A DNA stretch of 52,359 nt from a bacterium (GCA_018829565.1 JAHJTW010000022.1:1-52359), one strand, 5' to 3'. Shown: positions 4,056 to 52,359, counted from the stretch's first letter. The notes: a model not told the origin generated them from the sequence alone. Translations and numbers: made by a program.

Positions 4056-4126
4056 GTTCCGGCCGCGCCGGCGGCGATTCTTTGGCGCCCCAGTCGCCGC
4101 AAGAGGTCAGCGTTCCAGGAGGCGCT

Positions 4127-4369: not shown

Positions 4370-4683
4370 AGAGCGCCGAGAACTTGATCGCCGAAGTCCG
4401 GATCCGCCTGGCCCCCGACGCCACCAGCGGCCTGGTCGCCTTCGCCTCCTGCCGCTACGGCGGCGTCCTGCTCAATGACATCGCCATCCGCCGCGACCCG
4501 ACCGGCCACCTGTTCCTGACCTACCCGCGAAAGCTCGCGACCAATGGCCGACCTCACCCGCTGCATCACCCGATCGATCGTGAGACTGCCGGGCAGTTTG
4601 AGGTAGCGATCCTCGGGCAGATCCGTGCGCTCGTGAACGGGGAGCATGTGAGTGGGGGCAAGTCGGCGGAGGAGTCGACATGA
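4366..4683 (+). CDS. SpoVG-like nucleic-acid-binding protein
   Basis: EVRIRL..GLVAFASC.YGGVLLNDIAI.....LFLTYP.K....HPIDRET pattern typical of SpoVG. Confidence 0.7.
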   Translation: MKSAENLIAEVRIRLAPDATSGLVAFASCRYGGVLLNDIAIRRDPTGHLFLTYPRKLATNGRPHPLHHPIDRETAGQFEVAILGQIRALVNGEHVSGGKSAEEST

Positions 4684-4686
4684 ATG

Positions 4687-4720
4687 CCGAAGACCCCTCG
4701 GCTCGCCGAGAGGTCGTCGG
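4687..4720. terminator. Hairpin between convergent genes (possible bidirectional terminator)
   Basis: CCGA-AGACC-C-CTCGGC-TC-GCCGAG-AGGTC-GTCGG imperfect stem; no strong U tract. Confidence 0.4.
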
Positions 4721-4741
4721 TTCAGAACGGGATCCAGCGAG

Positions 4742-5002
4742 CTAGGCTTCGGATACGACCTCCTTCATGATCGCCCGAACGGCCGCCTCGTCCTTCGTCG
4801 CGGCGGCCACCAGCAGGCTGCGCGCAAACTTCGACGCCTTCGCCGGCCCGGCGGCCTTGTGGATTGCGTCGCGCTCGGCCTCGGTCAGCCGGAACGCGAA
4901 CACGCAGAGCTCTTCGCGCGGGGTCTTAGTCTTGGCCTCGGCGGCCGGCTTCTCGGCGGCGGGCTTGCGAGCCCGCGTGGTCTTCTTGGTGGTCTTGGCC
5001 AT
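4742..5002 (-). CDS. Small basic DNA-binding protein, ribbon-helix-helix-like
   Basis: Lys/Ala-rich N-terminus, then VFAFRLTEAERDAIHKAAG..ASKFARSLL (strand-helix-helix pattern). Confidence 0.6.
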   Translation of the reverse strand: MAKTTKKTTRARKPAAEKPAAEAKTKTPREELCVFAFRLTEAERDAIHKAAGPAKASKFARSLLVAAATKDEAAVRAIMKEVVSEA

Positions 5003-5005
5003 GGT

Positions 5006-5257
5006 TCAATTCCTCTCGCTCGGGTCCAGACGCACGATCCGGCTGGGATCCTTGCCGCAGCCCTCGCACGCCACGCGCCCGCCCTGGCGGTCGATCTCCG
5101 CCATGTCAGCGGGCGTGATCTCCTCCCATCGTTCCCAGATCCAGGTGTCGGACCCGGGGTACGGGATGTGGCAGCAGGCGCAAACGATGCTGCCCCGCTC
5201 GTTCCAGAACACCTGATGGGCCTTCAGGCCAAACCTGGGTGTCGCGGTCTTCGCCAT
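5006..5257 (-). CDS. Hypothetical small Cys-containing protein
   Basis: Tightly packed ORF with RBS; CACCH and CEGC motifs. Confidence 0.6.
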   Translation of the reverse strand: MAKTATPRFGLKAHQVFWNERGSIVCACCHIPYPGSDTWIWERWEEITPADMAEIDRQGGRVACEGCGKDPSRIVRLDPSERN

Positions 5258-5258
5258 G

Positions 5259-5585
5259 TCAGTCCACCTCCTGCGGGATGTCGGCAGCGAACACCAGCGT
5301 TCCGTCAGCGCCGTAGATCTCGACGCGGTCGATCCTGGTGTCGGGGTTCTCGCGGCCGGCGCGCAGGATGGCCTGGCTGGCCCGCATGGCGGTCAGACGT
5401 CCGTAGGCTTCGAGGCGCGCCTCCTGCCGGTCGGTGAACAGGGTCGGGTTCTCGTCGATTTGCAGTCCGCCTTTGAATTGCAGATCGAGGTCGCGCAACG
5501 AGGCCTCGAACACGAGGTCCTCGAGCGTGCTGTGGGGCTTCGGGTCGACCACGACCCAGAACTTGTCATCAGGTCCGTAGCGCAT
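5259..5585 (-). CDS. Hypothetical protein
   Basis: 108-aa ORF with AGGAGG RBS, in a tightly packed cluster. Confidence 0.65.
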   Translation of the reverse strand: MRYGPDDKFWVVVDPKPHSTLEDLVFEASLRDLDLQFKGGLQIDENPTLFTDRQEARLEAYGRLTAMRASQAILRAGRENPDTRIDRVEIYGADGTLVFAADIPQEVD

Positions 5586-5781
5586 CGTCGCTGCCTCCTT
5601 CGTTTGTCATCTGGGCGACCGTGCGGTCGCCTTCTTCGCGATCGGCGACGGGGATGAGCATCCCCCGGCCGACGACGTACCAGCCGTCGCGCCGGTGGAC
5701 GACTCGCAGGTCGCCGCTGAGGTCGAACTCCATCCCGTCGCTGAAGCGGAGGCGAGCGGGGCGGTCATGGTTCTTCGACAT
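5569..5781 (-). CDS. Hypothetical protein (70 aa)
   Basis: Start re-called at ATG 5781 (MSKNHD...), preceded by AGGAGG. Confidence 0.6.
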   Translation of the reverse strand: MSKNHDRPARLRFSDGMEFDLSGDLRVVHRRDGWYVVGRGMLIPVADREEGDRTVAQMTNEGGSDDALRT

Positions 5782-5794
5782 GGGACCGACCTCC

Positions 5795-6061
5795 TCACTG
5801 CGCCGCGGCGAAGGCCCAGGCCGGCGCGTAGGGGGAGGCGTTATCGGGGTGCCCGCCTTCGAAGAGGTAGACCACCGAGGCGGCGTCATCGGGTTCTTCG
5901 TCGGGCTCGCCTTGGGCGCGGGACTCGTCGTCCGGCGTGGCGATGCCGGCGACGGTGAATTGCAGTGGCCAGCTGGGCTGGAAGGCGAGGCGTACCTCGC
6001 ACTCGCCGAACCCACCTTCGGCGGCCTCCTGCAGGCGTTCGATCATCTCGTTGACCGTCAT
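5795..6061 (-). CDS. Hypothetical acidic protein (88 aa)
   Basis: Start re-called at ATG 6061 (MTVNEMIERL...EVRLAFQPSWPL), preceded by AAGGAG. Confidence 0.65.
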   Translation of the reverse strand: MTVNEMIERLQEAAEGGFGECEVRLAFQPSWPLQFTVAGIATPDDESRAQGEPDEEPDDAASVVYLFEGGHPDNASPYAPAWAFAAAQ

Positions 6062-13371: not shown

Positions 13372-16300
13372 TTAGACCTCGTGCTCAACCTTGACCGCAA
13401 ACCACTTGTAGAAGGCGGGGATCACGAGCAGGGTGAGAATCGTGGATGTTACCAGGCCTCCGACGACAACGGTGGCCAGCGGACGCTGGACCTCGCTGCC
13501 GGTTCCGTGCGAGAAGAGCAGCGGAAACAGACCGAGCGCCGTGGTGATTGCGGTCATCAGGACCGGGCGCAGGCGCTGGCACGCGCCCTGGATGGAGGCC
13601 TCGGCGACGGGTAGCCCGTCGCGCAGCAGCTGGTTGAGGTAGGTCACCAGCACCATGCCGTTCTCCAGGGCGATGCCGAACAGGGCGATGAAGCCTACTG
13701 ATGCCGGGACCGAAAGGTTTTGGCCCGTCAGCCACAGCGCGACCACGCCGCCGACCAGGGCCAGCGGGATGTTCAGCAGGATCAGGATGGAGTTGCGGAT
13801 CGAACCGAAGTTGCCGAACAGCAGGAGGAAGACCAACAACAGCGTCGCCGGAATAACCACGGCGAAGCGGCGGTTCGCTTCCTGCTGCAGGCGGAACTGT
13901 CCGCCCCAGGTCACGAGGTAACCCGGCGGCAGTTCGACCGAGGCATCGATCGCGTCCTGTGCGTCGGCGACGAACGAGCCGATGTCGCGATCGACGACGT
14001 TGCACTGCACGGAGATGAACCGCTGGTTGTCCTCGCGGGTGATCTGCCGGGGTCCGACGATCTCCTCGATGGAGGCCAGTTGGTCCAGCGGCACCCGGGC
14101 CCCGTCCGGGGCGGTGATGAGGATGTGGCCGATGCTCTCGGCGGTCTGGCGAGCCTCGGGGACGAAACGGACCAGGATGTCGAAGCGACGGATCCCCTCG
14201 TAGATCTGTCCGGCGACCTCGCCGCCCACCGCGGCCCGGATGACTCCCTGGACCTCGTCGACGTTGATCCCGTAGCGGGCGATCGCCTTCCGGTCGATAC
14301 GCAGGAGCAGCTGGGGAGCGCCGCTGACCTGGTCGACCTGGACGTCGGCGGCGCCGGGAACGGAGCCGACGACGGCCGCGATCTCCGCCGCGCGTTCCTT
14401 GAGGACGTCGAGATCGTCGCCGAAGATCTTCACGGCGAGCTCGGCGCGGACGCCCTCCAGGAGTTCATCCACCGTCATCTCGATGGGTTGGGTCAGGTTG
14501 ACCAGGACGCCGGGCACGTTGCCGACCTCGTCGCGGATGACGTCCTCGATGGCTTCCTGGCCTCCGGCGACGCGCCACTCGGATTCAGGACGGAGGATCA
14601 CGTACATCTCGGCGCTGTTGATGGGATCGGTGTGTGCCCCGACCTCACCGCGGCCGATGCGGGTAACGACCTCCCGGACCTCGGGAATCGCCATCAGGCG
14701 CCGCTCGACGATCTGCGCCGTCCGCTGGCTCTCGGTCAGCGAGATCGAGGGCGCCATCGTCAGACGGGCGACGATGGTCCCCTCGCGCAGCTTGGGCGTG
14801 AACTCCGAACCGAGGCGAGGAACCACCGCTGCGCCGGCCACCATCAGAACCACCGCGATTGCGATGGCCGCCCAGCTACGGCGGACGAAGAACTGGACGA
14901 CGGGCCGATACGGTTTCAAGAGCCAGCGTACCACCAGGGCTTCACCGTCACCGTCGGAGTCATCTCGCCGGCGGACCCGCATCAGGAGGCTGCTCAGGGT
15001 CGGCGCCAAAAGCAGGGCGAAGATGAGCGATCCCAGCATGGCCATGGTCACGGTGTAGGCCAGCGGCCGGAAGGTTTTCCCTTCGACGCCCTGGAGCGTG
15101 AACAGGGGCACGAAGACGAGAATGATGATGGTGATAGCGAACAGGATGGGACGGCCGACCTCCGCGCAGGCGAGCGAGATGGTCCGCAGACGGGTCATGT
15201 CCGGCGGTGCGATCCGCAACCGGCGGTCGATGTTCTCCACCATGACGATGGTACCGTCGACCATCATCCCGATTGCGATCGCCAGGCCGCCGAGCGACAT
15301 GAGGTTGGCCGAGACGCCGAAGCGTTCCATCAGCAGGAACGCAAAGAGCACCGAGAACGGCAGCGAGAGGGCGACCACGATGCTCGGGCGCAGACCGCCC
15401 ATGAAGACAAGCAGGACGATCGTCACCAAAATGACACCCTGCAATAGCGCGTTGATCACGGTCTTGACGGCGGCCTCGACGAGCGATTTCTGCTCGTAGT
15501 AGGGAACGATGCGCACCCCATCGGGCAGGATCTTGTTGATCTCCTCGAGCTTGGACTCGACACGGCCGATCACGGTGGACGAGTTGGCGCCGAATAGCTT
15601 GACCACCTGTCCGGAAACCACCTCTCCGGTGCCGTTGCGGGTCTGCAGTCCGCGACGAATCGCGCCGCCGGATCCGATCTCCGCAAGATCGGACAGGAAG
15701 ATGGAGGTCCCGTCGACGGTCTTGACGACGATCGAGCTGAGATCCTCCATGCCGGTCGCCAGCCCGACGGAACGGACGATGAACTCTTCGGAGTTCTTCT
15801 CGATGAACTGCGCGCCGACGTTGAGGTTGTTCGATCGCACGCAAGCGATCACATCGTCCAGGGTGACGTCGTAGCGCAGGAGCTGCTCGGGTCGAATCCT
15901 GATCTGATACTGTTTCTCGAAGCCCCCGATGCCGAGAACCTCGGTAACCCCGGGCACGGTCTGCAGGTGGAACTTGATCAGCCAGTCCTGGATCGTGCGC
16001 AGATCCTCCAGCGAGTACTCGCCGGTCGTGTCTTCCAGGTAGTAGAAGAGGACGAGCCCCATGCCGGTGGAGATCGGGCCCATCTGGGGGTCGCCGAATC
16101 CTTCGGGGATCTGTTCTCGGGCTTCTTGCAGTCGCTCGCCGACGAGTTGCCGGGCGAAGTAGATGTCCACATCGTCGCGGAAGTAGACGTTGACCACCGA
16201 CAGTCCGAAGTTGGATACCGATCGGACCTTGGCGGTGCCCGGCAGACCGGTCATGGCGGCTTCGACGGGGAAGGTGACGTACTTCTCGATCTCCTCGGGC

Positions 16301-16470
16301 GCGAGGCCCTCGGTCACCGTGAAGACCTGGACGAGGTTGGGCGAGACGTCCGGGAAGGCGTCGACCGGCAGGCGGGTGTAGCCGGCGTAGCCGGCGCCCA
16401 TCACGATCAGCGCGATGATGAGCACCAACAGGCGGTTCTTGAGGCCGAATTCGATCATTCGTTCGAGCAT
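13372..16470 (-). CDS. czcA: CusA/CzcA heavy-metal efflux RND permease
   Basis: 1032 aa; LPVDAFPDV, APEEIE..VT.PVE, NLMSLGGLAIAIGMMVDG..V.VEN, RLRPVLMTA, GSEVQRPLATVVVGG. Confidence 0.96.
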   Translation of the reverse strand: MLERMIEFGLKNRLLVLIIALIVMGAGYAGYTRLPVDAFPDVSPNLVQVFTVTEGLAPEEIEKYVTFPVEAAMTGLPGTAKVRSVSNFGLSVVNVYFRDDVDIYFARQLVGERLQEAREQIPEGFGDPQMGPISTGMGLVLFYYLEDTTGEYSLEDLRTIQDWLIKFHLQTVPGVTEVLGIGGFEKQYQIRIRPEQLLRYDVTLDDVIACVRSNNLNVGAQFIEKNSEEFIVRSVGLATGMEDLSSIVVKTVDGTSIFLSDLAEIGSGGAIRRGLQTRNGTGEVVSGQVVKLFGANSSTVIGRVESKLEEINKILPDGVRIVPYYEQKSLVEAAVKTVINALLQGVILVTIVLLVFMGGLRPSIVVALSLPFSVLFAFLLMERFGVSANLMSLGGLAIAIGMMVDGTIVMVENIDRRLRIAPPDMTRLRTISLACAEVGRPILFAITIIILVFVPLFTLQGVEGKTFRPLAYTVTMAMLGSLIFALLLAPTLSSLLMRVRRRDDSDGDGEALVVRWLLKPYRPVVQFFVRRSWAAIAIAVVLMVAGAAVVPRLGSEFTPKLREGTIVARLTMAPSISLTESQRTAQIVERRLMAIPEVREVVTRIGRGEVGAHTDPINSAEMYVILRPESEWRVAGGQEAIEDVIRDEVGNVPGVLVNLTQPIEMTVDELLEGVRAELAVKIFGDDLDVLKERAAEIAAVVGSVPGAADVQVDQVSGAPQLLLRIDRKAIARYGINVDEVQGVIRAAVGGEVAGQIYEGIRRFDILVRFVPEARQTAESIGHILITAPDGARVPLDQLASIEEIVGPRQITREDNQRFISVQCNVVDRDIGSFVADAQDAIDASVELPPGYLVTWGGQFRLQQEANRRFAVVIPATLLLVFLLLFGNFGSIRNSILILLNIPLALVGGVVALWLTGQNLSVPASVGFIALFGIALENGMVLVTYLNQLLRDGLPVAEASIQGACQRLRPVLMTAITTALGLFPLLFSHGTGSEVQRPLATVVVGGLVTSTILTLLVIPAFYKWFAVKVEHEV

Positions 16471-39465: not shown

Positions 39466-41616
39466 GTGAAGCAACGTAGGGACCTACGGCAACAAGACAC
39501 CGCAGAAAAGCTTGTTCGGATACAAGAGATGGCTTCCTTGTCTCTTTCAGATATTGCAGTGCTGCTGGGAGCGTCACTTGCCTCAACTGTACGCTGGCAA
39601 AGGGGCGACGTGCATCCCAGCCGGGATACAGAACGTAAAATCGACGACCTATTAGATCAGGCGACTAATGGCACGATTCCTACCATGAGACACGCATCTC
39701 TGTCGCACGTATTTGCGTCCCGAGGCGTCAGAACAAAGCCGGAACCGCTTTTTGATCATGACATCAAGATCTCCCTAGGCTCTGCGTCAGCACTTTCTTC
39801 TGTCCGGCCTGGCGTCAAGGGTTTTTGGGGGAGCAATCAAGCTATCCTAAGCGAACTGCTTTCAGACCATGAGCATGCCGCGAAGACCCTTCCTGTAGCA
39901 AGCCTTGGTGGCATGTCTGCGGGCAAGAACACCTATACATATGATGCCCATACGTATCACACTAAGGTTCCGCCTCAAGGTATCGCGGAAGTAATGTCGC
40001 GTTATCTGCCAAATGGTGGTCTCGTTCTTGATCCATTTGCTGGAAGTGGCATGACGGGCGTGGCAGCACGTGTTCTCGGCCTCGATGTAATACTCAATGA
40101 ATTGTCGCCAGCGGCTTCGTTCATCGCTGATCGCTTTACGTCATCACTTTCGCCGGCGATCTATTCGAGCGCCGTTGAAGCAGTCATACAAGAACTGCAG
40201 CCACTGCGTGCTCGCCTTTACCAAACCACTTGTCGTGAGTGCGGCCAGTTCACCGAAATCCTCTACACGGTCTGGTCATATCGTGTCACATGCTACGATT
40301 GCGGACACGAGTTTGTCCTTTGGGACCATTGCCGGCGATATGGAAACACCGTCAGAGAGCATAAGATCCTCTCGGCGTTCCCCTGCCCAGCCTGCGCCGC
40401 TCTCTTGAAAAAATCTCGACTCGCTCGAAGTTACGCCGTGCCTGTGTTGCTCGGCTACAAGTGCTGCTCGCGAACACAGATTGAGCATCCGCTAACCGAA
40501 TCGGACTTGGCTCTTATCAACGATATTGATGACAGCGTGCCTCTCGCTGACGGATTCTATCCGGAAACTGTCTTGCCGGATGGAGTAAATCTATCTCAAC
40601 CCAAACGACATGGCTTTTTGGAGGTCAAGGATTTCTACACGACCAGAAACCTGACCGCTTTGAGTCACCTCTGGAAAACTATTCACCGCGTCAATGACCG
40701 TACTGCCGCAGCCTTTCTCGCCTTCGCATTCACCTCGCTATATCAAAGGGTTACACGCCTATCTGAATATCGGTTTTGGGGGGGGAGTGGCAACACTGCC
40801 AACTACAACGTTCCCTATATCTTCAATGAAGCAAATGTATTTGTCACGTTTGCGCGCAAGGCCAAGTCCATTCGGGACCACCTCGCAACGACCGCGACGC
40901 GCTATCGGGGGCGCGCCCTTGTTCGCACCGGCAGCGCAACAAATATATCATTTCTCCCGGACGACTCCATCGATTTCATTTTCACGGACCCGCCATTCGG
41001 CGCTAACATCAATTACAGTGAAATGAATCTGTTATGGGAATCTTGGCTTGGTGCTTTTACCGATTGCGTGGAGGAGGCCATCGTAAACCGAACGCAGGGT
41101 AAAGGCGTGACCGAATACGGTGACCTGATGCGCCAGAGTCTGCGAGAATGTTATCGAGTGTTGAGGCCTGGTCACTGGATGGTTCTCGTATTCATGAATT
41201 CAAATGCTTCTGTTTGGGAGGCCCTCAAGTCTGCAATCGTCGATAGTGGGTTTGTACTCGAATCAGCAGAAATATTCGACAAGCAACACGCAACGTTTAA
41301 GCAGCTCGTAAGCGAAAATACCGCGGGTAGTGATCTATTGCTACATTGTCGGAAAGCGGGCTCTAGCAGTAGTGCAAGAAACACTCCGATGGCGGATTCT
41401 GTCGCGCGTTCGATTCCGGTCTATCTCGATCAAAGAGAAGGTCAGATTCCTACGTTGCCATATCTCCACGTCAAGCGTAGCACGGAAGTTGATTATCGCA
41501 CTCTGTATAGTGAATGGCTCAGTCAAGTTCTCCTTAGCTCGACACCGCCTATTGGCTTTGCTGACTTCCGAAGGATCGCATCTGACCACATCTCTAAGCG
41601 AGGCATGTCCCGATGA
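39466..41616 (+). CDS. DNA methyltransferase (N6A/N4C) with an N-terminal HTH and an internal Zn-ribbon
   Basis: HTH LSLSDIAVLLGAS.ASTVRWQRG; HTYHTKVPP; VLDPFAGSGMTG; CRECG/CYDCG/CPAC; FTDPPF; ECYRVLRPG. Confidence 0.9.
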   Translation: MKQRRDLRQQDTAEKLVRIQEMASLSLSDIAVLLGASLASTVRWQRGDVHPSRDTERKIDDLLDQATNGTIPTMRHASLSHVFASRGVRTKPEPLFDHDIKISLGSASALSSVRPGVKGFWGSNQAILSELLSDHEHAAKTLPVASLGGMSAGKNTYTYDAHTYHTKVPPQGIAEVMSRYLPNGGLVLDPFAGSGMTGVAARVLGLDVILNELSPAASFIADRFTSSLSPAIYSSAVEAVIQELQPLRARLYQTTCRECGQFTEILYTVWSYRVTCYDCGHEFVLWDHCRRYGNTVREHKILSAFPCPACAALLKKSRLARSYAVPVLLGYKCCSRTQIEHPLTESDLALINDIDDSVPLADGFYPETVLPDGVNLSQPKRHGFLEVKDFYTTRNLTALSHLWKTIHRVNDRTAAAFLAFAFTSLYQRVTRLSEYRFWGGSGNTANYNVPYIFNEANVFVTFARKAKSIRDHLATTATRYRGRALVRTGSATNISFLPDDSIDFIFTDPPFGANINYSEMNLLWESWLGAFTDCVEEAIVNRTQGKGVTEYGDLMRQSLRECYRVLRPGHWMVLVFMNSNASVWEALKSAIVDSGFVLESAEIFDKQHATFKQLVSENTAGSDLLLHCRKAGSSSSARNTPMADSVARSIPVYLDQREGQIPTLPYLHVKRSTEVDYRTLYSEWLSQVLLSSTPPIGFADFRRIASDHISKRGMSR

Positions 41617-42590: not shown

Positions 42591-43352
42591 CAGGTCCTCT
42601 ACAGTCCCCCGCTCCGAGAGGGGGGTATATGGAGTCGTTTCTGGGCATTGTTCAGTGAAGTCAAGTTGGCCCCCGCCGACACCACGCGAGCAGCCGGCAC
42701 CGCGTGGTTTCAATCTCGTCGGGCCTGCCGGGATCGATATTTAGCCGGCATCCAACGGACAGATATCCTCGGGACACTGTAACTCGCATTGTAGCAATTG
42801 ATTGTCGTATCTGTGTTGTCAGAGGATATTCTATCGACCCGAAACCAAACCTCGGGATGATTTCGATAGCGGTTACGTTTGGGGAGCCATCTTTTTTTGC
42901 CTCGAACCCGGGTGGGGAGAGGTTAACAGCAGCCCTGGTCCGGTGAGGATCGGGGTTTTTGTATGTCTTTGTGGCGGAATGGCTTACGTGTCTGAGAATC
43001 GGGTTTGGAAGGTCTCTTGGGGACAGGATAAAAGAGAGAGGTCGCTGGGCTCGAAATCCGGACGCGGGGGTGTCTCGGAGTCTCGGAATCCTGCACGGAG
43101 GGCTATTTTGGTTAACAGCCAGCGCAGGGTCAGGCGGTACATCCAGAGCGCGGAGCGGTATATGCGATAGTCGACGATCGGGTGTGGACCTGGACGAGCC
43201 CGAGTGGGATAATCACTGCCAGGACGTCCGGAGGCTACACCGCCAGGCGGGATGTCCTGCGGGATGGTTTGGGTATTGAGTGCTGTTTAATTCACGTTGG
43301 CCGGAAGCCTGGGGGGCTGCTGAATCACGTTGGGCTAGTGGGAGGGTTCCTG

Positions 43353-44375
43353 GTGAGTGTCTCGAAGCGATGTTCTTTATGCGCAGTAGTCGTCTCCGGG
43401 GACGCCCAGAGGGCCGCCAAGTGGGTCCGTCACTCCTATCCTGTCTTGGCAGCTGAAGGCGGGGTTCGAATCCTGCTCGTCCCGTGGGGCAAAAATTCTG
43501 AAGCAGTGATCCGCGAATTCCCGCCCGTCGTGCAGGTCAAACGAGCGCAACTCGAGAACCATACGCTCGAGGACAATCTCAACTTGGCGCTGGTGAGCCT
43601 GCTCGAATCCCCGCCTGACCTGGTTGCGTTCCTCGATGATGATACCTATCTGCGCTCTAACTGGGCGCGGGCAATGTTGCAATCGGCTGAAGAGGACAAG
43701 GATGCGGGCGCGTTTGCAAGCGTCGTATTCTCGGCGACCAGCGGGAAGCTGCAGAGTCAGGGGCATGCGTTTGTAAATGCTGCGCCGCGCGACCGCGGAT
43801 TTAATGGGAAGGGTCTTACGTGTCCCCTGCTCGGTCCCTGTAGCAATAGCGCGGTCGTGCGGTGGTCGGCGATCGCGGGAATCCGTGATGTACACCCTCA
43901 AGTGTGGGACCCGCTGTTCAATCAGCGACAGACCTGTTTTGACTTCGGCCTCAAGCTAGCGCTTACGGGCGTGCGTTCCCTGATCGTCGAGGCGGCTGAA
44001 GCGGACCATGAAGGGTACCTATCGACTGGCACTGAATGGCCGTACATGCGTGCAGCGGAGGAGGTCCGGCTGCAGCTGTCGCGGCGATACCTCCTGTATG
44101 CCAAGTTCCTATCGGGGAGGGCGTACAAGTGCGCGGTCCGTGCGCTCGAAGACCGGATTCCGCGCTGGCGTCGGGACGGCTATCCACACTTCCACCAAGT
44201 GGTGGGCGATGCAGTGGACGAGGTTCACGCTGCCGCAGTCGTCGAGGCTCGACGGCTAATGAGCTCGCTGTTGACGTCGGCGTGGCGTACCCTTATGGAG
44301 CGCCGGTCTGATCAGTTCGACCTGCTCGGGCTCGGTGATCCTGGCTGTTGCCTCCCAACAGCAACGTGCAAATGA
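43353..44375 (+). CDS. Glycosyltransferase, GT-A fold (family 2-like)
   Basis: GTG 43353 after GGAGG; NLNLAL, DLVAFLDDDT (DxD motif), NSAVVR..A, FDFGLKL...G. Confidence 0.78.
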   Translation: MSVSKRCSLCAVVVSGDAQRAAKWVRHSYPVLAAEGGVRILLVPWGKNSEAVIREFPPVVQVKRAQLENHTLEDNLNLALVSLLESPPDLVAFLDDDTYLRSNWARAMLQSAEEDKDAGAFASVVFSATSGKLQSQGHAFVNAAPRDRGFNGKGLTCPLLGPCSNSAVVRWSAIAGIRDVHPQVWDPLFNQRQTCFDFGLKLALTGVRSLIVEAAEADHEGYLSTGTEWPYMRAAEEVRLQLSRRYLLYAKFLSGRAYKCAVRALEDRIPRWRRDGYPHFHQVVGDAVDEVHAAAVVEARRLMSSLLTSAWRTLMERRSDQFDLLGLGDPGCCLPTATCK

Positions 44376-44449
44376 CCGGCTCGGCTGGGAAGCCCCGCAC
44401 AGAGCACGGGCCGCGCACGCCGGCCTCCCGGCTGAAGCCAACGCTAGGT
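44353..44449 (+). other. Degenerate attC-like site downstream of the GT2 gene
   Basis: TCCCAAC...GTGCAAATGACCGG...CCGGCTGA..CCAAC-GCTAGGT; its R''-like end complements GTTGGGC at 43329-43335 upstream of the gene. Confidence 0.55.
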
Positions 44450-44908
44450 TGCGCCTGGGGGCGGAATCAGGAAATGAGCAAAAGCTTATAAACGCTGGTT
44501 CAATAGTGCGGCGGGTGACCACTCCCCACCCTACCCCCTCGGGCGACAAACGGCACGGGGCGGAATTGTGGACACGGCTGAAGGTCTGTGCTTTACTGGA
44601 TCTCATGAATGACGGCGTCCATTGACAGGGTTTTTGCTGGCGTCGTAGCCGCATAATCCCAAGTCTGGAGCCGTCTTTCAACCTTTTCAGCCTTTCAAAC
44701 CCCCAAATTTATGCAATCATGGGGTTATCAGAGAAAATTGGGCCATTAAGGTGCCCGATGACGTATTCTTGCCAAAGTGAGCCATTCGACAAGACGGACA
44801 TGAAGCTTTGGATTGAGAGGTGTCTGGAATACCATGAAGAAGTGATCTGATATGATGGTCACGTGCGCTTAATGACTGTCTGGTAGCAGTGAAAGTGTCG
44901 CTATAGTT

Positions 44909-45952
44909 ATGGATCCAAAAATAGAAAATGTTTACTTCAAAGATCGCCGCGGAGAAGTCCGTGGACCGTTTGAAGTCTACAACGAAGATCCAAAGTTCAC
45001 GATTCTTAATAATAATAGCGGGCCATGGGATCACGTCTTCAGGGGGCATACCCTCGTACGCCACCTTTCCAATGGAAGGATTGAAAATCGCCACATCTTC
45101 GCTGTAAGTTGGTACGGAGCTATAATGTTCCCATCACTTGAGATCATTGCCCCGAAACAGGTCGTTAAGCCTGGTTCGGAAAAGCGCTTTGCGCGCGATA
45201 GAGCGTTTTCGTGGAATCCGACTGCAGAAGAAATGCCACCTATACTCGATTTTCGTCCTGGCACAACTATCATGGGTGGCCGCGACAGTGGTTTTTACGA
45301 TAGCGAGGGGATCATAATTGAAGCTGAACATACAGGCGGAGACCCAAAGCGGGAAGAGGACTGGTTGTTTCGAGTCATTGCAAAGACTACTGATGGGGAA
45401 TGGCTGGGGCCCTACTGGATCCTTCTCTGTGATGTTGGGTTCCCGATTACTGAGCCGGAATGGTTATGGGAATTCCCCTTGGAGCCAAGCAAGCCGATCG
45501 ACGAACTCCTGGCAGCCGGAGAGCAGGAACTTTTTGAGTACTTCGCAAGTCACCCGAAAGAGCTAGTGAACCTTAGCCCGCGACGTTTCGAAGAGTTAGT
45601 TTTGGCGATATACCGAAATCTGGGCTTTGCGACCGAGAGAGTAGGTGCCTGGAATCAGCAAGATGGTGGGGTGGATTTACTTGCGGTTTCGAGAACGGAG
45701 GCGGGAACGGAATTTCGGATCGCGATCCAATGCAAGACTTCGGGGCGGAAAATATCGGCACGACCGATTCGTGAGCTGGCCGGAGTACTTGGTGTTTTTC
45801 ACGCACACCAAGGCGTCGTTGCGACGACCTCAGCATTTACTGGACCTGCGAGAAAGGAGGTCGAGGGGTCGCTGTGGCAAATTTCACTGCAAGACAAAGA
45901 CGACTTATATAGACGTATTTTATCGATTCTTGTACCAGATTTGAAATTATGA
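44909..45952 (+). CDS. Mrr-like (Mrr_cat) restriction endonuclease with an unrecognised N-terminal domain
   Basis: LSPRRFEELV..IY..LG, DGGVDL, IQCK, I..RPIREL.G, GVVATTS.FT..AR.E. Confidence 0.88.
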   Translation: MDPKIENVYFKDRRGEVRGPFEVYNEDPKFTILNNNSGPWDHVFRGHTLVRHLSNGRIENRHIFAVSWYGAIMFPSLEIIAPKQVVKPGSEKRFARDRAFSWNPTAEEMPPILDFRPGTTIMGGRDSGFYDSEGIIIEAEHTGGDPKREEDWLFRVIAKTTDGEWLGPYWILLCDVGFPITEPEWLWEFPLEPSKPIDELLAAGEQELFEYFASHPKELVNLSPRRFEELVLAIYRNLGFATERVGAWNQQDGGVDLLAVSRTEAGTEFRIAIQCKTSGRKISARPIRELAGVLGVFHAHQGVVATTSAFTGPARKEVEGSLWQISLQDKDDLYRRILSILVPDLKL

Positions 45953-45963
45953 CATGCCTTCCA

Positions 45964-46200
45964 TCAAATGTTTGAATGACCCATCTCAAGGGACCCCATG
46001 AGCCTGCTAACCCTTGCCCTCAACACCCCGCACATACGCGCCACGGCCGCCGTCTCAGCTACCTCCCCGGACCGGACGAGTCCATCGATCCAGTAGGCGA
46101 GGGCGAGATTCCGGGCCCGGCGAGACGCCCAGTCCTGCCCCTGTCGTTCGGCCTTGGCCCTGGGGGTGCGGACCAGGTCACCCCGCAGCCTAGCGCGGTA
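45964..46200 (-). pseudogene. Copy D of the recombinase-associated HTH gene, 5'-truncated
   Basis: Translates ..AKAERQGQDWASRRARNLALAYWIDGLVRSGEVAETAAVARMCGVLRARVS; no in-frame start after the DUF4041 stop. Confidence 0.85.
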
Positions 46201-47844
46201 TCACTCGATTTCTTCTTCAGCCAACCCGACAACTGACGTATCGAGCTCCAATTGTCGATTCAGCCACGCCTCCCGGGCGGCGGGGTCGTCTTTGATGGCT
46301 CTTTCGATCGCCAACGTCTCGCGGTAGTCCCGGGCTTCAGCGGCCATAGTCCATTTACACTCGAGACCCAGAGCTTCGATCTCCTGACGGATATCGGCGA
46401 TGGTGGCCCGGAAGAACTCCTTCCGATAATTTACCTTGTTGACTTGCGCAAGCGCGAAATGGCGGTGCAGGCGAGTCTCCAGCGTTGGCGCGTCATCAGA
46501 AAGAATCATGGCGTGCACGTCGAAATCGAACGGAACACTTGAATCGCCGAGTTCGCGTACTCGATCCAGGGGTTCAAGTCTGCGCGTCAGGCCAATTTTG
46601 AAGACATCGTCCCCGAAAGAGCCAATGTTGGAAATGATATAGACGTGGCCGCGGCGGGTTTGCTGGGCCATCGAAATTGCACGCTGATTGCGCTCTTCCG
46701 TTTCAAGGAGCTTCGCCGTCAGCTCTGCCAGCTTCTGCTCGAATGCCGCGCGCTGTTCAGCATTGGCGTGTGCAACCTGCTCCTGTGCCTTGGCCATGGC
46801 CTTACGTAGCATATCCTCTTCCTTGGCTGCGTCGCGAATGGCTCGCTCGAATTCCTTGCGGGCCTTTTCCTCTTCGCGCAGTTGCTCTCGTACGCGGCGC
46901 TGCTCCTCGCGCTCCTCGAGCTTCAGCTGCTGTGCCACCGCCGCCCATCTCAGCTCATCGAGTCGGGCAGCCAAGTACTGATCGGTGATGTGTGCGTCGC
47001 GGAATGCCTTGCCGTTGAGGTTGACAACAGTGAAGGCATCCCGGATTTCCTGGGAAAGCGTACCGGCGTTGTCATGGCGGACGCGAGAAAGGATCGAATC
47101 TACCTTGCCATTGAAAGCGTCGGTAACGAAGGCGATGGCAGTTGTTCGACGGTTGTCCTCAACGTATGAACACGAGGCGGCTGTGTCGCTGCGAATCATT
47201 GACCGTGTCACTTTGCGGGCGTTCTTGAGGGCTTCTCCAGCCTCGGTGTAGCCAAATTCCTCGGCAAGGTCATCAAGAAGGCTAATGCTCGGGATGAGGT
47301 ATGCATCCCCGTAGCCGTCGACTATGTTCTTCATAGCGCGCGCTGCCTTTTCGTATAGGGCGGCGTTGTTCATTGCCTTATAGGCCTCTCCAGCGATCTG
47401 CTCCGCGTTTGCATGGGCGTCGGAAATAATCTTGGTGGCCTGGGTCGCGGCGCAATCCAGAGCAGATTGGGCATCGTCTTTCATTGTCTTGGCCTGCTGG
47501 CGCGCGTGGGACAATGCCGTCATTGCTTCTGAGGCAGCCAAGGTTCGTTCTGATTCTGCATTTGCGAGAATCTCCGCAGCTTTTGCGGAAGCATCGACAA
47601 TACCGCGATATTGAGATAGGGTGGCGACTTCAGATAGAGCCTTTGACAAATTCTCGTTGGATTGCTGCAGTGAAGATTCAAGTTCCTGTGTTTTCGCTGT
47701 GGCCTGGGTTAAGTGGTCCTTGGCCTCGCGTAGAGCCGCGGCGCGATCGCGCGACAGTTTTGTCTGTTGAACAAGTCGATTGCCCAACACCGCGATAGCA
47801 ACGATGAAGATGACAAGGAGAGCGTAGGCAAGATTGGTGATCAT
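46201..47844 (-). CDS. DUF4041 + T5orf172/MUG113 (GIY-YIG-like) domain protein with an N-terminal TM anchor
   Basis: FNGKVD, L..RL.EL, EEQRR.REQ.REE, GHVYIISNIGSFG.DVFKIGLTRRLEP.DRV.ELGD.SVPF.FDVHA. Confidence 0.92.
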   Translation of the reverse strand: MITNLAYALLVIFIVAIAVLGNRLVQQTKLSRDRAAALREAKDHLTQATAKTQELESSLQQSNENLSKALSEVATLSQYRGIVDASAKAAEILANAESERTLAASEAMTALSHARQQAKTMKDDAQSALDCAATQATKIISDAHANAEQIAGEAYKAMNNAALYEKAARAMKNIVDGYGDAYLIPSISLLDDLAEEFGYTEAGEALKNARKVTRSMIRSDTAASCSYVEDNRRTTAIAFVTDAFNGKVDSILSRVRHDNAGTLSQEIRDAFTVVNLNGKAFRDAHITDQYLAARLDELRWAAVAQQLKLEEREEQRRVREQLREEEKARKEFERAIRDAAKEEDMLRKAMAKAQEQVAHANAEQRAAFEQKLAELTAKLLETEERNQRAISMAQQTRRGHVYIISNIGSFGDDVFKIGLTRRLEPLDRVRELGDSSVPFDFDVHAMILSDDAPTLETRLHRHFALAQVNKVNYRKEFFRATIADIRQEIEALGLECKWTMAAEARDYRETLAIERAIKDDPAAREAWLNRQLELDTSVVGLAEEEIE

Positions 47845-47938
47845 GTAGTACCTGCCATGTTTAGCATCTGAAACGCTTTAGGAACGACCCGCTTTCGGGC
47901 ATAATCGCATGTGGCGTGATTCGAATCGTTATGGGAGC

Positions 47939-48357
47939 TTACGGTATAAGGGCGCCGCCGTCAGCAAAATCTTGCTTAGGGAATTGGGAGAACGATTGCC
48001 CAAGATTTGCTGGGCCGGTCTGACAGGCGGGCGGGGACGAGATGAGGCTGTTCACGAGCGCCCGCTCCTGCTGCTCTCCCGCTTGTTCCAGCAATGCCAC
48101 GATAGCAGAAACCCGCGCCCTGCTCACCCCACACATCCTTGCCACGGCCGCCAGGTCCGCCACTTCCCCAGAGCGAACCAGCCCGTCGATCCAATAGGCC
48201 AGCGCCAGGTTCCTGGCTCGGCGTGCCGCCCGGTCCTGACTCTGCCGCAGCTTGGCTCGACCCACGGACACAGACGTCGGCTCAGGGCGCGTCCTGGCAC
48301 CGCGACCTTGACCTCGACCCTCAGGGCCGCGGAGCGGACCGCCAGGTTGAGTGGCAT
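47939..48357 (-). pseudogene. Copy C of the recombinase-associated HTH gene, frameshifted near the 5' end
   Basis: ALRVEVKV.. in one frame (ORF 48124-48357) and QDRAARRARNLALAYWIDGLVRSGEVADLAAVARMCGVSRARVS in another (ORF 47939-48271). Confidence 0.85.
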
Positions 48358-48358
48358 A

Positions 48359-49102
48359 CTAGGTTTCTATGCGCGAGACCGGGGGGTACGGGAACTCAAG
48401 TGCTAGCCCCTCCCAGTCTAGCACCCAGACCCGCCGAAAGGGACCCAATCCGCGTTCACGAAGGAGTTTGACTAGGGCATTTAAATACTGACGATCGTGA
48501 CCCCAAGCAAGTCCTCCAAAATGTGCCAGAAGCTCGATGGGGCAGTCGGTTTCGTAAAACTTTGAGAGCTTCGAAGAAAAGGCCGCCATCGGTACGGTCG
48601 GGTCGAAACTGCCACCAAGGTTGAAGTTCACGGCGCCCGGGTCATTGAGCCGCCCGGCGAAGCATACCTTTATGACCGCGCCAGCGACAGTGGGCGAGAA
48701 TGAAACGAACTCATCGTTAGTCGGTGTCGCCGACAGTAGTTCTATAAGGAGAGCCGGTAGTATGGTCTTGATTCTGACTAGGGAGGCCTCGGGCCTGAAG
48801 TAGAACCTAAGAGGTCTGTTGACGAAGCGGCGTTCGAAAGAATTGCGCGACGGTGCATCAAGCCCGTTGTATGCATCCATGATTGCGTTGTGGATTCGCT
48901 GGGCAGAGAACATGAACCGCGCATTGGCAGGATTGCAGATCTCGACCAACTCAAAGGCCACGGAGCCACCCGTTGCCAAACCGCATCGTACGTCAGGTTC
49001 TGGTGGAAACCGCTTCTCGATAGTCGCAGGCAGAACTGGGAGCCCCGCAATCTCAACGAAGTGGCGGAATATTCTAATTTCGTCTTCAGATTGATCAACC
49101 AT
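48359..49102 (-). CDS. Hypothetical protein (247 aa), possible nuclease-like fold
   Basis: Long AT-richer ORF; EPDVRC....VAFELVE near the N-terminus; GTTAGGT lies just upstream. Confidence 0.6.
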   Translation of the reverse strand: MVDQSEDEIRIFRHFVEIAGLPVLPATIEKRFPPEPDVRCGLATGGSVAFELVEICNPANARFMFSAQRIHNAIMDAYNGLDAPSRNSFERRFVNRPLRFYFRPEASLVRIKTILPALLIELLSATPTNDEFVSFSPTVAGAVIKVCFAGRLNDPGAVNFNLGGSFDPTVPMAAFSSKLSKFYETDCPIELLAHFGGLAWGHDRQYLNALVKLLRERGLGPFRRVWVLDWEGLALEFPYPPVSRIET

Positions 49103-49534
49103 GAAAGTACTGGCCACCTAACTGGCGTTCGGCCGCTCCACGGATACTGAGTTCAAGGTCGAAACGCGTCTGGATACCTTCGGGTCGCTCAAGTAGCCGG
49201 TCGCGGTATTCCGCCGGTAGCGCGGATTGGACCGAACTCTCAAATCGCATTCACAATGGAGACTCGACGTGCCAACCTGCGTTCCGCGCGAAAGACTAGT
49301 CCAGATAGCTTCGAGTGGGCAGCAAGCGTACATGACAGGGCAGCCGCTGTCCAGTCGGAGGTCAGTGCAGTCCGGTGGGGGCATTCGAAAGGGTTCGCGG
49401 GTTGCCGCGCTCGGCAGGTCCGATATCGTGGCAGCTCTGTGGTAGGTGGTGTTGCCGCGCGAGCGGCCGCAGAGGCGCGTCGCCCTGGTCAGGTACCGGA
49501 GACGGGGCAAAGTGAAGCAGGGTTGGCGGGTCTG

Positions 49535-49740
49535 TCTGCGAGAATCCAATCCTGAACCCTCCGTACCGGCAGGAAGTGCATGCCGCAGAGCTTTTGTCAG
49601 GCGCGCCCGGGAGACTCGGCTTAGCTTTGCGGCGGACGTCAGATCGGCCACCTCCCGCTCCTGACCAGATGGTCGATCCAATAGGCCAACGCCAAGTCCC
49701 TGGCCCGGCTGGCGGCTCGGTCTCTCATACCGCTTCAAAA
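49535..49740 (-). pseudogene. Copy B of the recombinase-associated HTH gene, truncated and frameshifted
   Basis: AASRARDLALAYWIDHLVRSG, a 1-nt deletion, then EVADLTSAAKLSRVSRARLT. Confidence 0.8.
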
Positions 49741-49753
49741 CCCCTCCATTTCC

Positions 49754-49813
49754 TAATAACGCATGAATTAGGCTGAGCCTCGAAGCGATTTCGGTCTGAA
49801 TGAATTGTCAGAG
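49754..49813 (-). other. attC-like site (59-base element), 60 bp, degenerate
   Basis: CTCTGACAATTCATTCAGACCGAAATCGCTTCGAGGCTCAGCCTAATTCATGCGTTATTA closely resembles recalled aadA-type attC (..TAACAATTCATTCAAGCCG..GCTTCG..GGCTTAATTCA.GCGTTAG). Confidence 0.75.
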
Positions 49814-49829
49814 CCTGCGCTCGCCAAGG

Positions 49830-50117
49830 TTAGCTCTCGGGTATAAGGTCGCCGAAGGCCCACAAAAAGGTTCCGAATATAGTTGCGGAATAGACGATGT
49901 GCATGAGGCGCTGTTTCAGGGTAATGCCGCTGCTAAGCTTGCGCGTGAATTTTTCTGGGTTTGCGAACATGTAACCCTGCAGAAATACCGCCATTCCAAC
50001 TAAAGTGCCTCCGATCCGACCGGGCCAACCAATGTCTCCGACAAGGGATGTGAGTAACGAAGCAAGACCAAAGCTGCCAAAGACGAGCAGCGCAGAAAGA
50101 ATGGCGCTGTAGATCAT
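49830..50117 (-). CDS. Small membrane protein (about 3 TM, 95 aa)
   Basis: Start re-called at ATG 50117 after GGGAG; three hydrophobic segments; flanked by attC-like sites. Confidence 0.7.
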   Translation of the reverse strand: MIYSAILSALLVFGSFGLASLLTSLVGDIGWPGRIGGTLVGMAVFLQGYMFANPEKFTRKLSSGITLKQRLMHIVYSATIFGTFLWAFGDLIPES

Positions 50118-50136
50118 TGCGAATGCTCCCTGTGGG

Positions 50137-50194
50137 CTCGATCGTTGACGATCAACCACCGTCGAGGGTGGGCGGCTGAAACGGCAGGGATGGC
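50137..50194 (-). other. Degenerate attC-like site, 58 bp
   Basis: GCCATCCCTGCCGTTTCAGCCGCCCACCCTCGACGGTGGTTGATCGTCAACGATCGAG: internal stem and attC-like ends; the upstream ORF reads through it. Confidence 0.5.
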
Positions 50195-50697
50195 GTCGCC
50201 GCCTCCCCGGGATAGGCATGTAACCAAAGCTCGATTGGCGATAGACCAGCAAAGCTCTCGGCTACAAGTCGTACTAGCTTAGCGGCCTTGTCAACTTCAT
50301 ACCCGTACAGCAAGTAGATCGCGCGCTCGTAACCGACCTTAGTACGAAACAGGGATAACTTTCTCAAGTCGTCCTCGATCCCGGAGCGTTTCGCATTGGA
50401 TGATTTAACCTCTATGATTATTTTGTTGCCGGCCATGTGCCCTGGCTGATGGACAAGAAGGTCAGGTTTAGCAAAATCAGCACCGAGTTTCTTAAGGATT
50501 GGGTGGGCGGCTTTATCGAGTTCACCATTCAGGCAATACTGTGTGTCTGCCGGCCATAAGCACCGGAGTTGGTGGTACAGTTCATAGCAGTACACCCGCT
50601 CCCGATAGACCGGATCACCTCCGTCCAGCTCAATATGAAAGTAAAGCGGGGCAATCTGCTTAGTAGAAACCTTGAGAAGATCCGTGAATTCGTGCAT
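50152..50697 (-). CDS. PD-(D/E)xK-like nuclease-fold protein
   Basis: ATG 50697 after AAGGAG; RERVYCYELYHQLR, KPDLLVH....IIIEVK; GTTAGGC at 50713-50719 upstream. Confidence 0.72.
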   Translation of the reverse strand: MHEFTDLLKVSTKQIAPLYFHIELDGGDPVYRERVYCYELYHQLRCLWPADTQYCLNGELDKAAHPILKKLGADFAKPDLLVHQPGHMAGNKIIIEVKSSNAKRSGIEDDLRKLSLFRTKVGYERAIYLLYGYEVDKAAKLVRLVAESFAGLSPIELWLHAYPGEAATPSLPFQPPTLDGG

Positions 50698-50805
50698 TGG
50701 TTCTCCTTGAATGCCTAACCAGGGCCACCCGGATCCATATATTGTAAGAATTCCGCGACGCAACCCGTGCAGTGGAATCAATGGGTGCCGGTAGTGGCTG
50801 ATATT

Positions 50806-51213
50806 CTATTCCCATGAGGGGCTTCCGAATGCGGCGGATGGTACACCAGTTGGCCGGTAAGGTAAAGAAGAGATGGAATGAAGGGCGAATTTGGAGGGCG
50901 CTGCCAATTTCTTCAGGGGGGCGCGACTACCGACAAGTTTCTCCTGTTCTGCTGCAGGTATCCCCAGCATCCCCACGACATTGCTGACCCTCGCCCGAGA
51001 TACTCTGCACATTCTGGCCACGGCCGCCAGGTCTGCGACCTTCCCGGACCGAACGAGCTCGTCGATCCAATAGGCGAGCGCGAGGTTCCTGGCCCGCCGT
51101 GCCGCCCGGTCCTGCCGCTGGCGCTCAGCTTTGGCCCCGGGGGCCGGCTTGGGGGCGGGGCGGCGGCCAGCCAGCTGGACCTTGAACTCGACCCTCAAGG
51201 CATCGTCGTTCAC
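50806..51213 (-). CDS. Recombinase-associated small HTH protein (copy A, intact)
   Basis: GTG start overlaps the recombinase stop (GTGA); RARNLALAYWIDELVRSGKVADLAAVARMCRVSRARVSNVV HTH pattern. Confidence 0.8.
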   Translation of the reverse strand: MNDDALRVEFKVQLAGRRPAPKPAPGAKAERQRQDRAARRARNLALAYWIDELVRSGKVADLAAVARMCRVSRARVSNVVGMLGIPAAEQEKLVGSRAPLKKLAAPSKFALHSISSLPYRPTGVPSAAFGSPSWE

Positions 51214-52359
51214 CGTAGTGCCTCCTGTGCCTTCGCCACCTCGTCGGCCAGCGAGCGGATTCCGGTGGGTTTGAAGGTGATGGCCAGAGTTCCTGCAGTG
51301 GCGTCGAAGTCGATCCTTTCGATCAGCAGGTTGATGACCCGTTCCTGCTCCCGGGGGAACAGACAGCCCCAGACCTCATCGAACAGGGCAAGGCTGCGGG
51401 CGAGGTGCCGCTTGTCGATGGTTTGGTCTCTCAGGACAGCAAGCTCCCGTGCGATTTCCTCGAGGCGGGCCTGGATGCGCCCGATTTGCTCTCGGTCCTC
51501 ATCCCGCCCCGTGTCAATCAGCCTGGCCAGTTCTCGGTCCAGCCTCCGCTGTTCGGCAGCCAGCTGGGGTGTGCGGCTCTTCTGGATGCTGCGAATCTGC
51601 TCCAGAGTCCCGGCAACCAAGTCGGGGTCCCTGCCGATGGCCTTGATCCGCGCCACCACGGCATCCTCGATCTGCTGGGCCGGCAGGGAGGGATGCGGGC
51701 ACAACTTCCAGCCGTTGCGCGTGGCGTTGGTGCAGACGTAGTACCGGAACGCCCGGCCATTCTTGCGGGTCACACTCGGCGACATGGCGCAGCCGCAGGC
51801 CGTGCAATGCAGCAGGCCGCGCAGGAGATGCCCGTAGCGGTTCTTGGCTTTCGCCCCACTGCTGACGTTGTTCTGGGCGAGCAGGGCTTGGACGCGGTCG
51901 TAGAGGTCCACAGGGACGATCCCGGGGTGCTCGCCGTCATAGATTTGCCCGTGGTGGGACACCCGGCCCACGTACAGCGGATTGCCGAGCAGCCTGGACA
52001 GGTTGGACTTCTGGAACGGCACGCCCTCGTGGAACGTCCCTCCCTTCGTGGCCCAGGACTTGGTCCGCCAGCCGCGGCGGTTGAGCTCCCGGGCCAACAG
52101 CTGCAGTGACCTCAGATCCAGGTAAAGGGTGAAGATCTGCCGGACTGTCTCGGCTTCCTCCTCGTTCACCACCAGCCGCCCACCGCCGGGGTGGACGTCG
52201 TAGCCCAGGACCGGGAAACCGCCGGTCCATTTCCCCTTCTTGCGGGCCGCGGACATCTTGTCCCGGGTCCGGTCGGCGATCATCTCCCGTTCGAACTGGG
52301 CGAAGCTGAGCAGGACGTTCAGCATCAGCCGCCCGCTCGAGTCCGCGGTGTTGATCGGC
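51210..52359 (-). CDS. Large serine recombinase (resolvase + recombinase + Zn-ribbon domains); 5' end lies outside the window
   Basis: INTADSSGRLMLNVLLSFAQFEREMIADR.RD...A.RKKG.W.GG...LGYD; L.NPLYVG; LLRGLLHC..CG..M; YYVC. Confidence 0.95.
   Translation of the reverse strand, partial: PINTADSSGRLMLNVLLSFAQFEREMIADRTRDKMSAARKKGKWTGGFPVLGYDVHPGGGRLVVNEEEAETVRQIFTLYLDLRSLQLLARELNRRGWRTKSWATKGGTFHEGVPFQKSNLSRLLGNPLYVGRVSHHGQIYDGEHPGIVPVDLYDRVQALLAQNNVSSGAKAKNRYGHLLRGLLHCTACGCAMSPSVTRKNGRAFRYYVCTNATRNGWKLCPHPSLPAQQIEDAVVARIKAIGRDPDLVAGTLEQIRSIQKSRTPQLAAEQRRLDRELARLIDTGRDEDREQIGRIQARLEEIARELAVLRDQTIDKRHLARSLALFDEVWGCLFPREQERVINLLIERIDFDATAGTLAITFKPTGIRSLADEVAKAQEALR

Follow-up and report, generated by a model that had tools for sequence, protein, structure and literature searches.

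The question raised by this locus is whether two small genes of a phage genome (50719-49754, minus strand) are integron cassettes whose attC sites have decayed. The window, i.e., the whole 52,359-nt stretch of DNA that was analysed (GCA_018829565.1, JAHJTW010000022.1:1-52359), belongs to a metagenome-assembled genome (MAG) of Ca. Krumholzibacteriota, whose GyrB is 80-83% identical to those of Krumholzibacteriia MAGs. In attC sites, the core consensus is RYYYAAC for R'' and GTTRRRY for R', with conserved AAC and GTT triplets, and at least two attC sites within 4 kb with no intI nearby constitute a CALIN. An earlier, sequence-only reading had proposed that the phage acquired integron cassettes, which were then fixed by attC decay. 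Cassettes homologous to both units in integron arrays support this proposal, and the degenerate core triplets and stems fit it. With a probability of roughly 85%, the segment is a piece of an integron array that comprises two cassettes and amounts to a fossil CALIN; it lies in the accessory/defence region of a temperate phage.

The remaining window is a tailed-phage genome with a GpA terminase, a lambda-type portal, capsid, tape measure, and tail genes, and its low-GC accessory region spans 39-51 kb (features in Table 1). The two cassettes are located directly downstream of, and co-oriented with, an operon consisting of a large serine recombinase gene and an HTH-like gene. Read along the minus strand, the recombinase, a phage integrase-type gene, is thus upstream of both cassettes; a complete 506-aa version is encoded in L162, where two DUF2924 genes precede it. 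The defence neighbours of the cassettes include, besides a PD-Lambda-1 homologue and an Mrr-type nuclease, a restriction-modification system. An Rfam scan of the 45.5-52.4 kb region returned nothing relevant and no attC-like match.

Table 1. Features of the recombinase-proximal accessory region, with window coordinates
Feature	Position	Strand	Basis or remark
Large serine recombinase, N-terminus cut by window end	51210..52358	-	Pfam Resolvase, Recombinase, Zn_ribbon_recom
HTH-like gene copy A, 135 aa	50806..51213	-	HMM match 50923-51210
Cassette 1, extent	50718 to 50143	-	
Left boundary core of cassette 1, R'-type GTTAGGC	50713..50719	-	nucleotide homology to L074, L078, L159 starts here
Cassette 1 cargo, 181-aa PD-(D/E)xK-like protein	50152..50697	-	family, residues, fold
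Decayed attC of cassette 1, 58 bp	50137..50194	-	positional homology to L159 attC
Cassette 2, extent	50142 to 49760	-	
Cassette 2 cargo, 95-aa protein with three predicted membrane helices	49830..50117	-	9 homologues
Decayed attC of cassette 2, 60 bp, fosE/aadA type	49754..49813	-	fosE 48/60, aadA1 43/60, R2 15.7 bits
HTH copy B, frameshifted, 5'-truncated	49589..49725	-	HMM 49651-49725 and 49589-49654, two frames
547-aa DUF4041/T5orf172 protein	46201-47844	-	clear PD-Lambda-1 defence homologue, PADLOC E 1e-112
Mrr/type IV-like nuclease gene	44909-45952		neighbour of 547-aa gene
Third attC relic, host's own ~98-nt type	44353..44449	+	R1 14.9 bits, full length; R2 11.7 bits
PglX-like methyltransferase	39466-41616		

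The first cassette opens with the heptamer GTTAGGC, 15 nt ahead of the ATG at 50697. Its proposed position and its role as a boundary are borne out by homology, whereas the motif by itself is no more frequent than expected by chance: the window has 39 occurrences of GTTRRRY, and shuffles have 55 +/- 8. The heptamer is nevertheless taken as a true cassette boundary because the homology edge falls there in three independent relatives. Identity to L074 and L078 amounts to 32% and 31%, respectively, in the ~60 aligned columns before GTTAGGC, increases to 66% and 63% in the 100 columns after it, and reaches 70-71% in the body of the ORF. At the corresponding position, the relatives contain ATTAGGC (L074-L077), GTTCGGC (L078), and GTTATGC (L159). 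In L074-L077, a 41.1-bit attC lies directly upstream and ends exactly where homology to the first cassette of the window starts.

The 181-aa protein encoded by this cassette belongs to a family of 1612 members. Among 26 sequences, Pro78-Asp79, Val97, and Lys98 are invariant and Glu96 is at least 90% conserved. The AF2 model (pLDDT 80.6) has only PD-(D/E)xK folds as top Foldseek matches (PaqCI, YaeQ, XPF, and Cdn1; best E 4.7e-3, probability 0.98), and PADLOC reports a weak match to PD-Lambda-3_A (E 4.4e-6). By its motif and predicted fold, the protein can be placed in the PD-(D/E)xK superfamily, with a predicted nuclease activity.

The 58-bp site at the end of this cassette overlaps the last 14 codons of the 181-aa ORF. 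Its cores are degenerate, with GCCATCC as R'' (4/7) and GATCGAG as R' (GTT lost); the latter (50143-50137) forms the 3' end of the site and represents a mutated form of the junction core (GTTAGAG in L071). The site is regarded as an attC relic because it is positionally homologous to a detectable attC (26.5 bits, E 2.5e-4) in L159. There, a 181-aa homologue with the same C-terminus as the window protein is encoded, and the attC overlaps its last codons; this attC itself has no GTT core. The two sites share 35 of 58 positions, and the inner CCACC/GGTGG stem alone remains, though a part of the likeness may be due to the common C-terminal coding sequence rather than to attC ancestry. The description of the 58-bp element as an attC-like stem holds for the relic but not for the stem, which folds no better than shuffles (MFE -6.8 kcal/mol, z = -0.44). 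In a search of 50100-50830 with the covariance model R2 (described below), the best match, at 50141-50189, reaches only 6.7 bits. The complementarity claimed between the leading heptamer and the R'' end is present at 4/7 positions in the window (GTTAGGC/GCCATCC) and at 6/7 in L159 (GTTATGC/GCATACC). Two other R'' candidates (GCCTATC at 50217-50211 and GCCCACC at 50172-50166) and the R' candidate GTTGATC (50156-50150) were dropped, as L159 supports the originally proposed register as the homologous one.

The second cassette has relatives in integron arrays. Homologues of its three-helix protein occur as cassettes in L070-L073 and directly after KwaA-KwaB in L068 and L069. In L070, four attC sites (54-62 bits) form an array beside a divergent IntI-type integrase gene (Phage_int_SAM_4/Phage_integrase), and the homologue occupies the third cassette. 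L071 and L072 carry the second cassette intact, with 296 of 390 nucleotides (76%) identical over the whole length, from the core (GTTAGAG vs GATCGAG in the window) through the ORF into the 60-bp attC, which in L071 scores 50.5 bits. The heptamer complementarity claimed for this cassette is perfect in L071 (GTTAGAG/CTCTAAC) and mutated in the window (GATCGAG/CTCTGAC). The copies in L068 (6001-6315) and L069 (1016-1330) are located ~60 nt downstream of KwaA-KwaB, i.e., the Kiwa defence system; neither contig yielded an attC. No paralogues of any cargo gene were found in the host MAG.

A lack of cargo homologues in integron arrays had been named as an argument against a cassette origin; they are in fact present in L070-L072 (three-helix protein) and in L074/L075 (PD-(D/E)xK-like protein). 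Both units align from boundary to boundary with array cassettes elsewhere, and sequence comparison suffices to recognise their attC sites. Each unit is a gene cassette, i.e., a core-bounded ORF with an attC, with homologous units in L070-L072, L074-L077, and L159.

The 60-bp site that terminates the second cassette has CTCTGAC as R'' and GTTATTA as R' (GTT kept, 4/7). Its proposed assignment to the aadA type is well founded. Compared with the aadA1 attC of plasmid R100, confirmed there directly after aadA1 and beside intI1, it has 43 ungapped matches in 60 positions; the next best value is 36 among the 8.8 million 60-mers of the 4.39-Mb host MAG (both strands). A blastn search of 7.3 Gb of plasmid sequences retrieved the fosE cassette attC of class 1 integrons (84% over 56 nt, E 1e-7) and a same-type site on the Desulforapulum plasmid pHRM2a. 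In the latter, an environmental plasmid (L067, Desulforapulum autotrophicum), a cassette array occupies 1740-6031, and its attC at 3999-4058 matches the fosE attC at 59 of 60 positions. The site in the window shares 48 of 60 positions with fosE; the 12 differences include one compensatory pair, four stem-pair breaks, one G-T wobble, and the change of AAC to GAC in R''. It equals the class 1 attC sites of fosE and aadA1/aadB/catB3 in length and register, without gaps, and the motif common to it and the fosE/aadA1 sites is AACAATTC..TTCA..CCGA...GCTTCG...GCGTTA. Unlike the fosE and aadA1 cassettes, the cargo encodes an unrelated three-helix membrane protein.

The decay of this site is evident in its folding. 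Its minimum free energy is -6.1 kcal/mol, compared with -14.9 for fosE and -18.3 for aadA1, and it is predicted to form three small local hairpins (-6.1/-6.8 kcal/mol, z -1.2 to -1.3) instead of a single hairpin with R''-R' and L''-L' pairing. When threaded on the aadA1 structure, it yields +11.5 kcal/mol, with 16 of 23 pairs kept, three of them via compensatory double changes.

Two covariance models were used for attC detection: R1, built from host-lineage sites and aadA1, and R2, built from 20 diverse seed sites and containing 14 covarying pairs, which were examined one column at a time. Intact sites outside the seed score 25-69 bits on R2. With the host-type model R1, the interval 49650-50850 was negative. 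With filters off, the best R2 match of the whole window coincides exactly with 49754-49813 on the minus strand at full length (15.7 bits, E ~0.15); a covariance signal at low threshold, whose absence had been taken in advance as counter-evidence, is therefore present, if weak. The E-values are not significant at the window scale for either relic (0.15 for the 60-bp site; the 58-bp site was not listed). A strict finder of R''/R' motifs and hairpins recovers aadA1 and host attC sites and nothing in the window, while its relaxed version, with a background of 7.5 matches per 10 kb, is uninformative. The low R2 scores are as expected for decayed sites. The proposed folding check turned out negative, as neither site folds as an attC hairpin (MFE -6 to -9 kcal/mol, z -0.4 to -1.3 vs shuffles), and their folding energy reaches about one third of the value for intact relatives. 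On their own, the folding, the motif count, and the strict finder would have spoken against attC sites. The core triplets read GAC in R'' of the second attC and GAT in R' of the first, and it is the sequence homology to the established fosE and aadA1 sites that identifies the 60-bp site as attC. In sequence, the sites have lost features that IntI needs (AAC to GAC in R'', GTT to GAT in the junction R', and at least four broken stem pairs). The two relics are ~320 nt apart and even a weak model signal is found at one alone; at most one of them would probably be called by a standard pipeline.

The sequence-only reading had noted that no IntI was in view, which is correct within the window. The statement has to be limited to the window because the host MAG carries intI (C230:1332-2315; TIGR02249, 447.8 bits vs a cut-off of 265) and many attC sites: at least 17 were detected with R1 outside the phage contig, in cassette arrays scattered over several contigs. 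Among 81 relatives, 40 have an intI above the TIGR02249 cut-off. In the Krumholzibacteriota lineage, intI is typically located at a contig end, and the attC sites follow its 3' end and share its strand, an 'inverted' layout (G000 C230:153-2315; L027, L035).

A third attC relic, of the host's own type, is present within the phage at the 3' end of a glycosyltransferase-like gene (43182-44375), in an orientation opposite to that of the other two. Its global alignment with the host attC at C157:16305-16400 scores 26, whereas 500 random 97-mers from the window give -3 +/- 3.9 (maximum 10; z about 7.5). A 146-nt non-coding segment nearby (44587-44732) is 92% identical to C157:31341-31486. The copy in C157 sits at a border between high-GC and low-GC sequence. 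The segment of the window is also related to C75 (~80% identity) and C189 (77%). It is not a tRNA and has no Rfam match; one possibility is that a mobile element ends here, another that this is an att-type sequence. The phage contig is assigned to the MAG on the basis of binning and the host-type relic, and this relic, together with the C157 match, supports a real phage-host link.

The surroundings of the cassettes are unusual in another respect. HTH copy A is translationally coupled to the recombinase gene via a GTGA overlap and is conserved only in its first ~97 codons; the family comprises 246 homologues, which are ~100 aa long and lack any Pfam domain. The window has four such copies in one orientation (64-76% nucleotide identity; 45973-51213, minus strand), which have diverged and separate cargo genes from each other. 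Copy B starts ~27 nt after the attC of the second cassette, and the copies beyond it are separated by a 252-aa orphan gene and by the 547-aa DUF4041/T5orf172 gene. The 252-aa neighbour, itself considered as a cassette candidate, has an R2 match of 8.7 bits (49116-49133), which is not significant; searches of genome_contigs and metagenome_contigs gave no relatives. The arrangement of HTH copies and cargo is found again in unrelated phage contigs from metagenomes (L001, L004, L005, and L015), where some copies follow remnants of the recombinase 3' end. The breakpoints vary (HMM positions 3 to 69), which argues for tandem accretion and deletion rather than for a precise site-specific mechanism. 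The integron cassettes look like the cargo of one such accreted module. A 1175-nt Logan contig from another sequencing run (L163, SRR6514730) is 100% identical to 49751-50925 and ends exactly at the end of the conserved core of copy A and at the R' end of the second attC; this suggests that its ends are branch points of the assembly graph and, hence, that the flanks at module ends are variable in that sample. In the host MAG, further tblastn matches of the HTH family fall within G000 C168:1534-2250, which may be a second element of the recombinase-HTH type.

That the cassettes are ordinary phage morons and their sites random sequence is scarcely credible. The GTTRRRY motif is indeed not enriched, the claimed stems fold no better than shuffles, and the covariance-model E-values alone are not significant. 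Chance, however, does not account for a 43/60 match to aadA1 where the MAG-wide maximum is 36, for a blastn E of 1e-7 to a fosE-type attC, for sharp homology edges at core sites in independent relatives, or for homologues within arrays beside an IntI-type gene. It is also very unlikely, if less so, that the array was built by the serine recombinase with HTH copies as punctuation, the integron cassettes having been swept in within one accreted module. Such a capture system would be in line with four co-oriented copies of 64-76% identity that separate cargo, with the recurrence of this architecture in four other contigs, including the recombinase remnants, and with the start of copy B shortly after the second attC. 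This explanation is compatible with a fossil array fragment and not opposed to it; the variable breakpoints favour tandem accretion with deletion, and the attC homology and the cassette boundaries are left unexplained by it.

Somewhat greater, although still low, is the probability that the sites are functional, i.e., that the segment is a live CALIN excisable by the host IntI, with the phage as a shuttle of mobilisable cassettes. The second attC retains GTT in R', preserves 16 of 23 aadA1-type pairs (three by compensatory changes), and is the best R2 match of the window. The host possesses intI, recombination with IntI1 has been demonstrated for some attC sites of phages (Qi et al. 2023, PMC9892861), and the Logan contig from another run terminates exactly at the end of this site. 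These observations are outweighed by the loss of AAC in its R'' (GAC), by the junction core GATCGAG, which is devoid of GTT, and by energetics: -6.1 kcal/mol compared with -14.9 and -18.3 for intact sites, and +11.5 when the canonical hairpin is threaded. The scores are also below those of almost all intact sites.

If the segment is a fossil array fragment, as preferred here, the cassettes would have entered the phage in an integron-bearing host, either by IntI-mediated insertion of cassette circles at a secondary site or through the illegitimate capture of part of a chromosomal array. Recchia and Hall reportedly described in 1995 cassettes at secondary sites, which are neither attI nor attC, e.g., aadB in RSF1010 derivatives. 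As in that case, a cassette lies outside an integron and has no partner site, and is hence stranded; unlike it, the window contains two adjacent cassettes in array order. Secondary-site insertion is just one of the two routes, because the flanks are unmatched to an uninterrupted target and the cassettes are adjacent in array order: no relative with an empty site was found for the flanks, the left flank (50720-50925) matches nothing, and none of 13 related phage loci carries attC. Subsequently, excision and shuffling by IntI would have been lost, leaving the cassettes as ordinary fixed phage genes. Having no promoter of their own, they would be transcribed by read-through from the recombinase-HTH operon. 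No sigma-70-like promoter was detected upstream of the 181-aa gene on the same strand, in a scan that may not cover the host promoter type, and no terminator-like site was detected between the HTH gene and the cassettes; read-through is, for this reason, the simplest route of expression.

The attC types within the phage differ in affiliation, that of the second cassette being the clinical fosE/aadA type and the third relic being of the Krumholzibacteriota host type. One might speculate that the phage ferries defence cassettes between integron-bearing hosts of distant phyla, either by integrating in or beside the chromosomal integron of its host and repeatedly taking up adjacent cassettes on excision, or by using the serine-recombinase/HTH array as a second, independent accretion platform that absorbs integron cassettes; this is rather doubtful.

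Phage genomes are known to contain complete integrons and CALINs, some of them captured from the chromosomal integrons of their hosts (Qi, Rajabal, Ghaly, Tetu & Gillings 2023, PMC9892861). The present locus resembles the phage CALINs of that study in having attC cassettes in a phage genome with no adjacent IntI; there, temperate phages take pieces of the sedentary chromosomal integron of their host, and the cargo is often close to methyltransferase or defence-type genes. IntegronFinder/HattCI was used to call those CALINs, so that most of their attC sites are intact, and recombination was demonstrated for some (PMC9892861). In the present locus, both sites have decayed beyond the reach of standard detection, and homology to intact cassettes was the only means of recognising them. 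Also distinctive are the host, an uncultured MAG of Ca. Krumholzibacteriota, and the HTH-punctuated array beside a serine recombinase. It is well supported that the case adds one further example to the documented integron pieces in phages and leaves the picture of Qi et al. 2023 unchanged; what sets it apart is the decay of its sites and its unusual neighbourhood. It suggests that integron cassettes can become fixed genes in the accessory region of a phage and then lose their recombination sites. As standard attC detection would miss decayed cases, the number of integron elements in phages is probably underestimated by surveys. Within a single 6-kb stretch, three systems of gene flux appear to meet: the host chromosomal integron, the phage defence island, and a recombinase-associated repeat array.

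The cargo possibly serves the lysogen in anti-phage defence or superinfection exclusion, as do presumably its neighbours PD-Lambda-1, the Mrr-type nuclease, and the restriction-modification system. Integron cassettes that encode anti-phage defence have been reported (bioRxiv 10.1101/2024.07.02.601719 and 10.1101/2024.07.02.601686). The two genes are similar to these in their small, single-gene nuclease or membrane-protein type and in their defence-rich neighbourhood; in contrast to them, they are carried by a phage and not by an integron of a bacterium, and their defence role is putative. The 181-aa and 95-aa genes thus represent a concrete pair of small candidate anti-phage genes. Between the packaging and tail genes, the phage additionally contains a full-length AcrB/RND transporter gene (13372-16470, minus strand; Pfam ACR_tran, E 1e-291) with 70% nucleotide identity to host contig C193.
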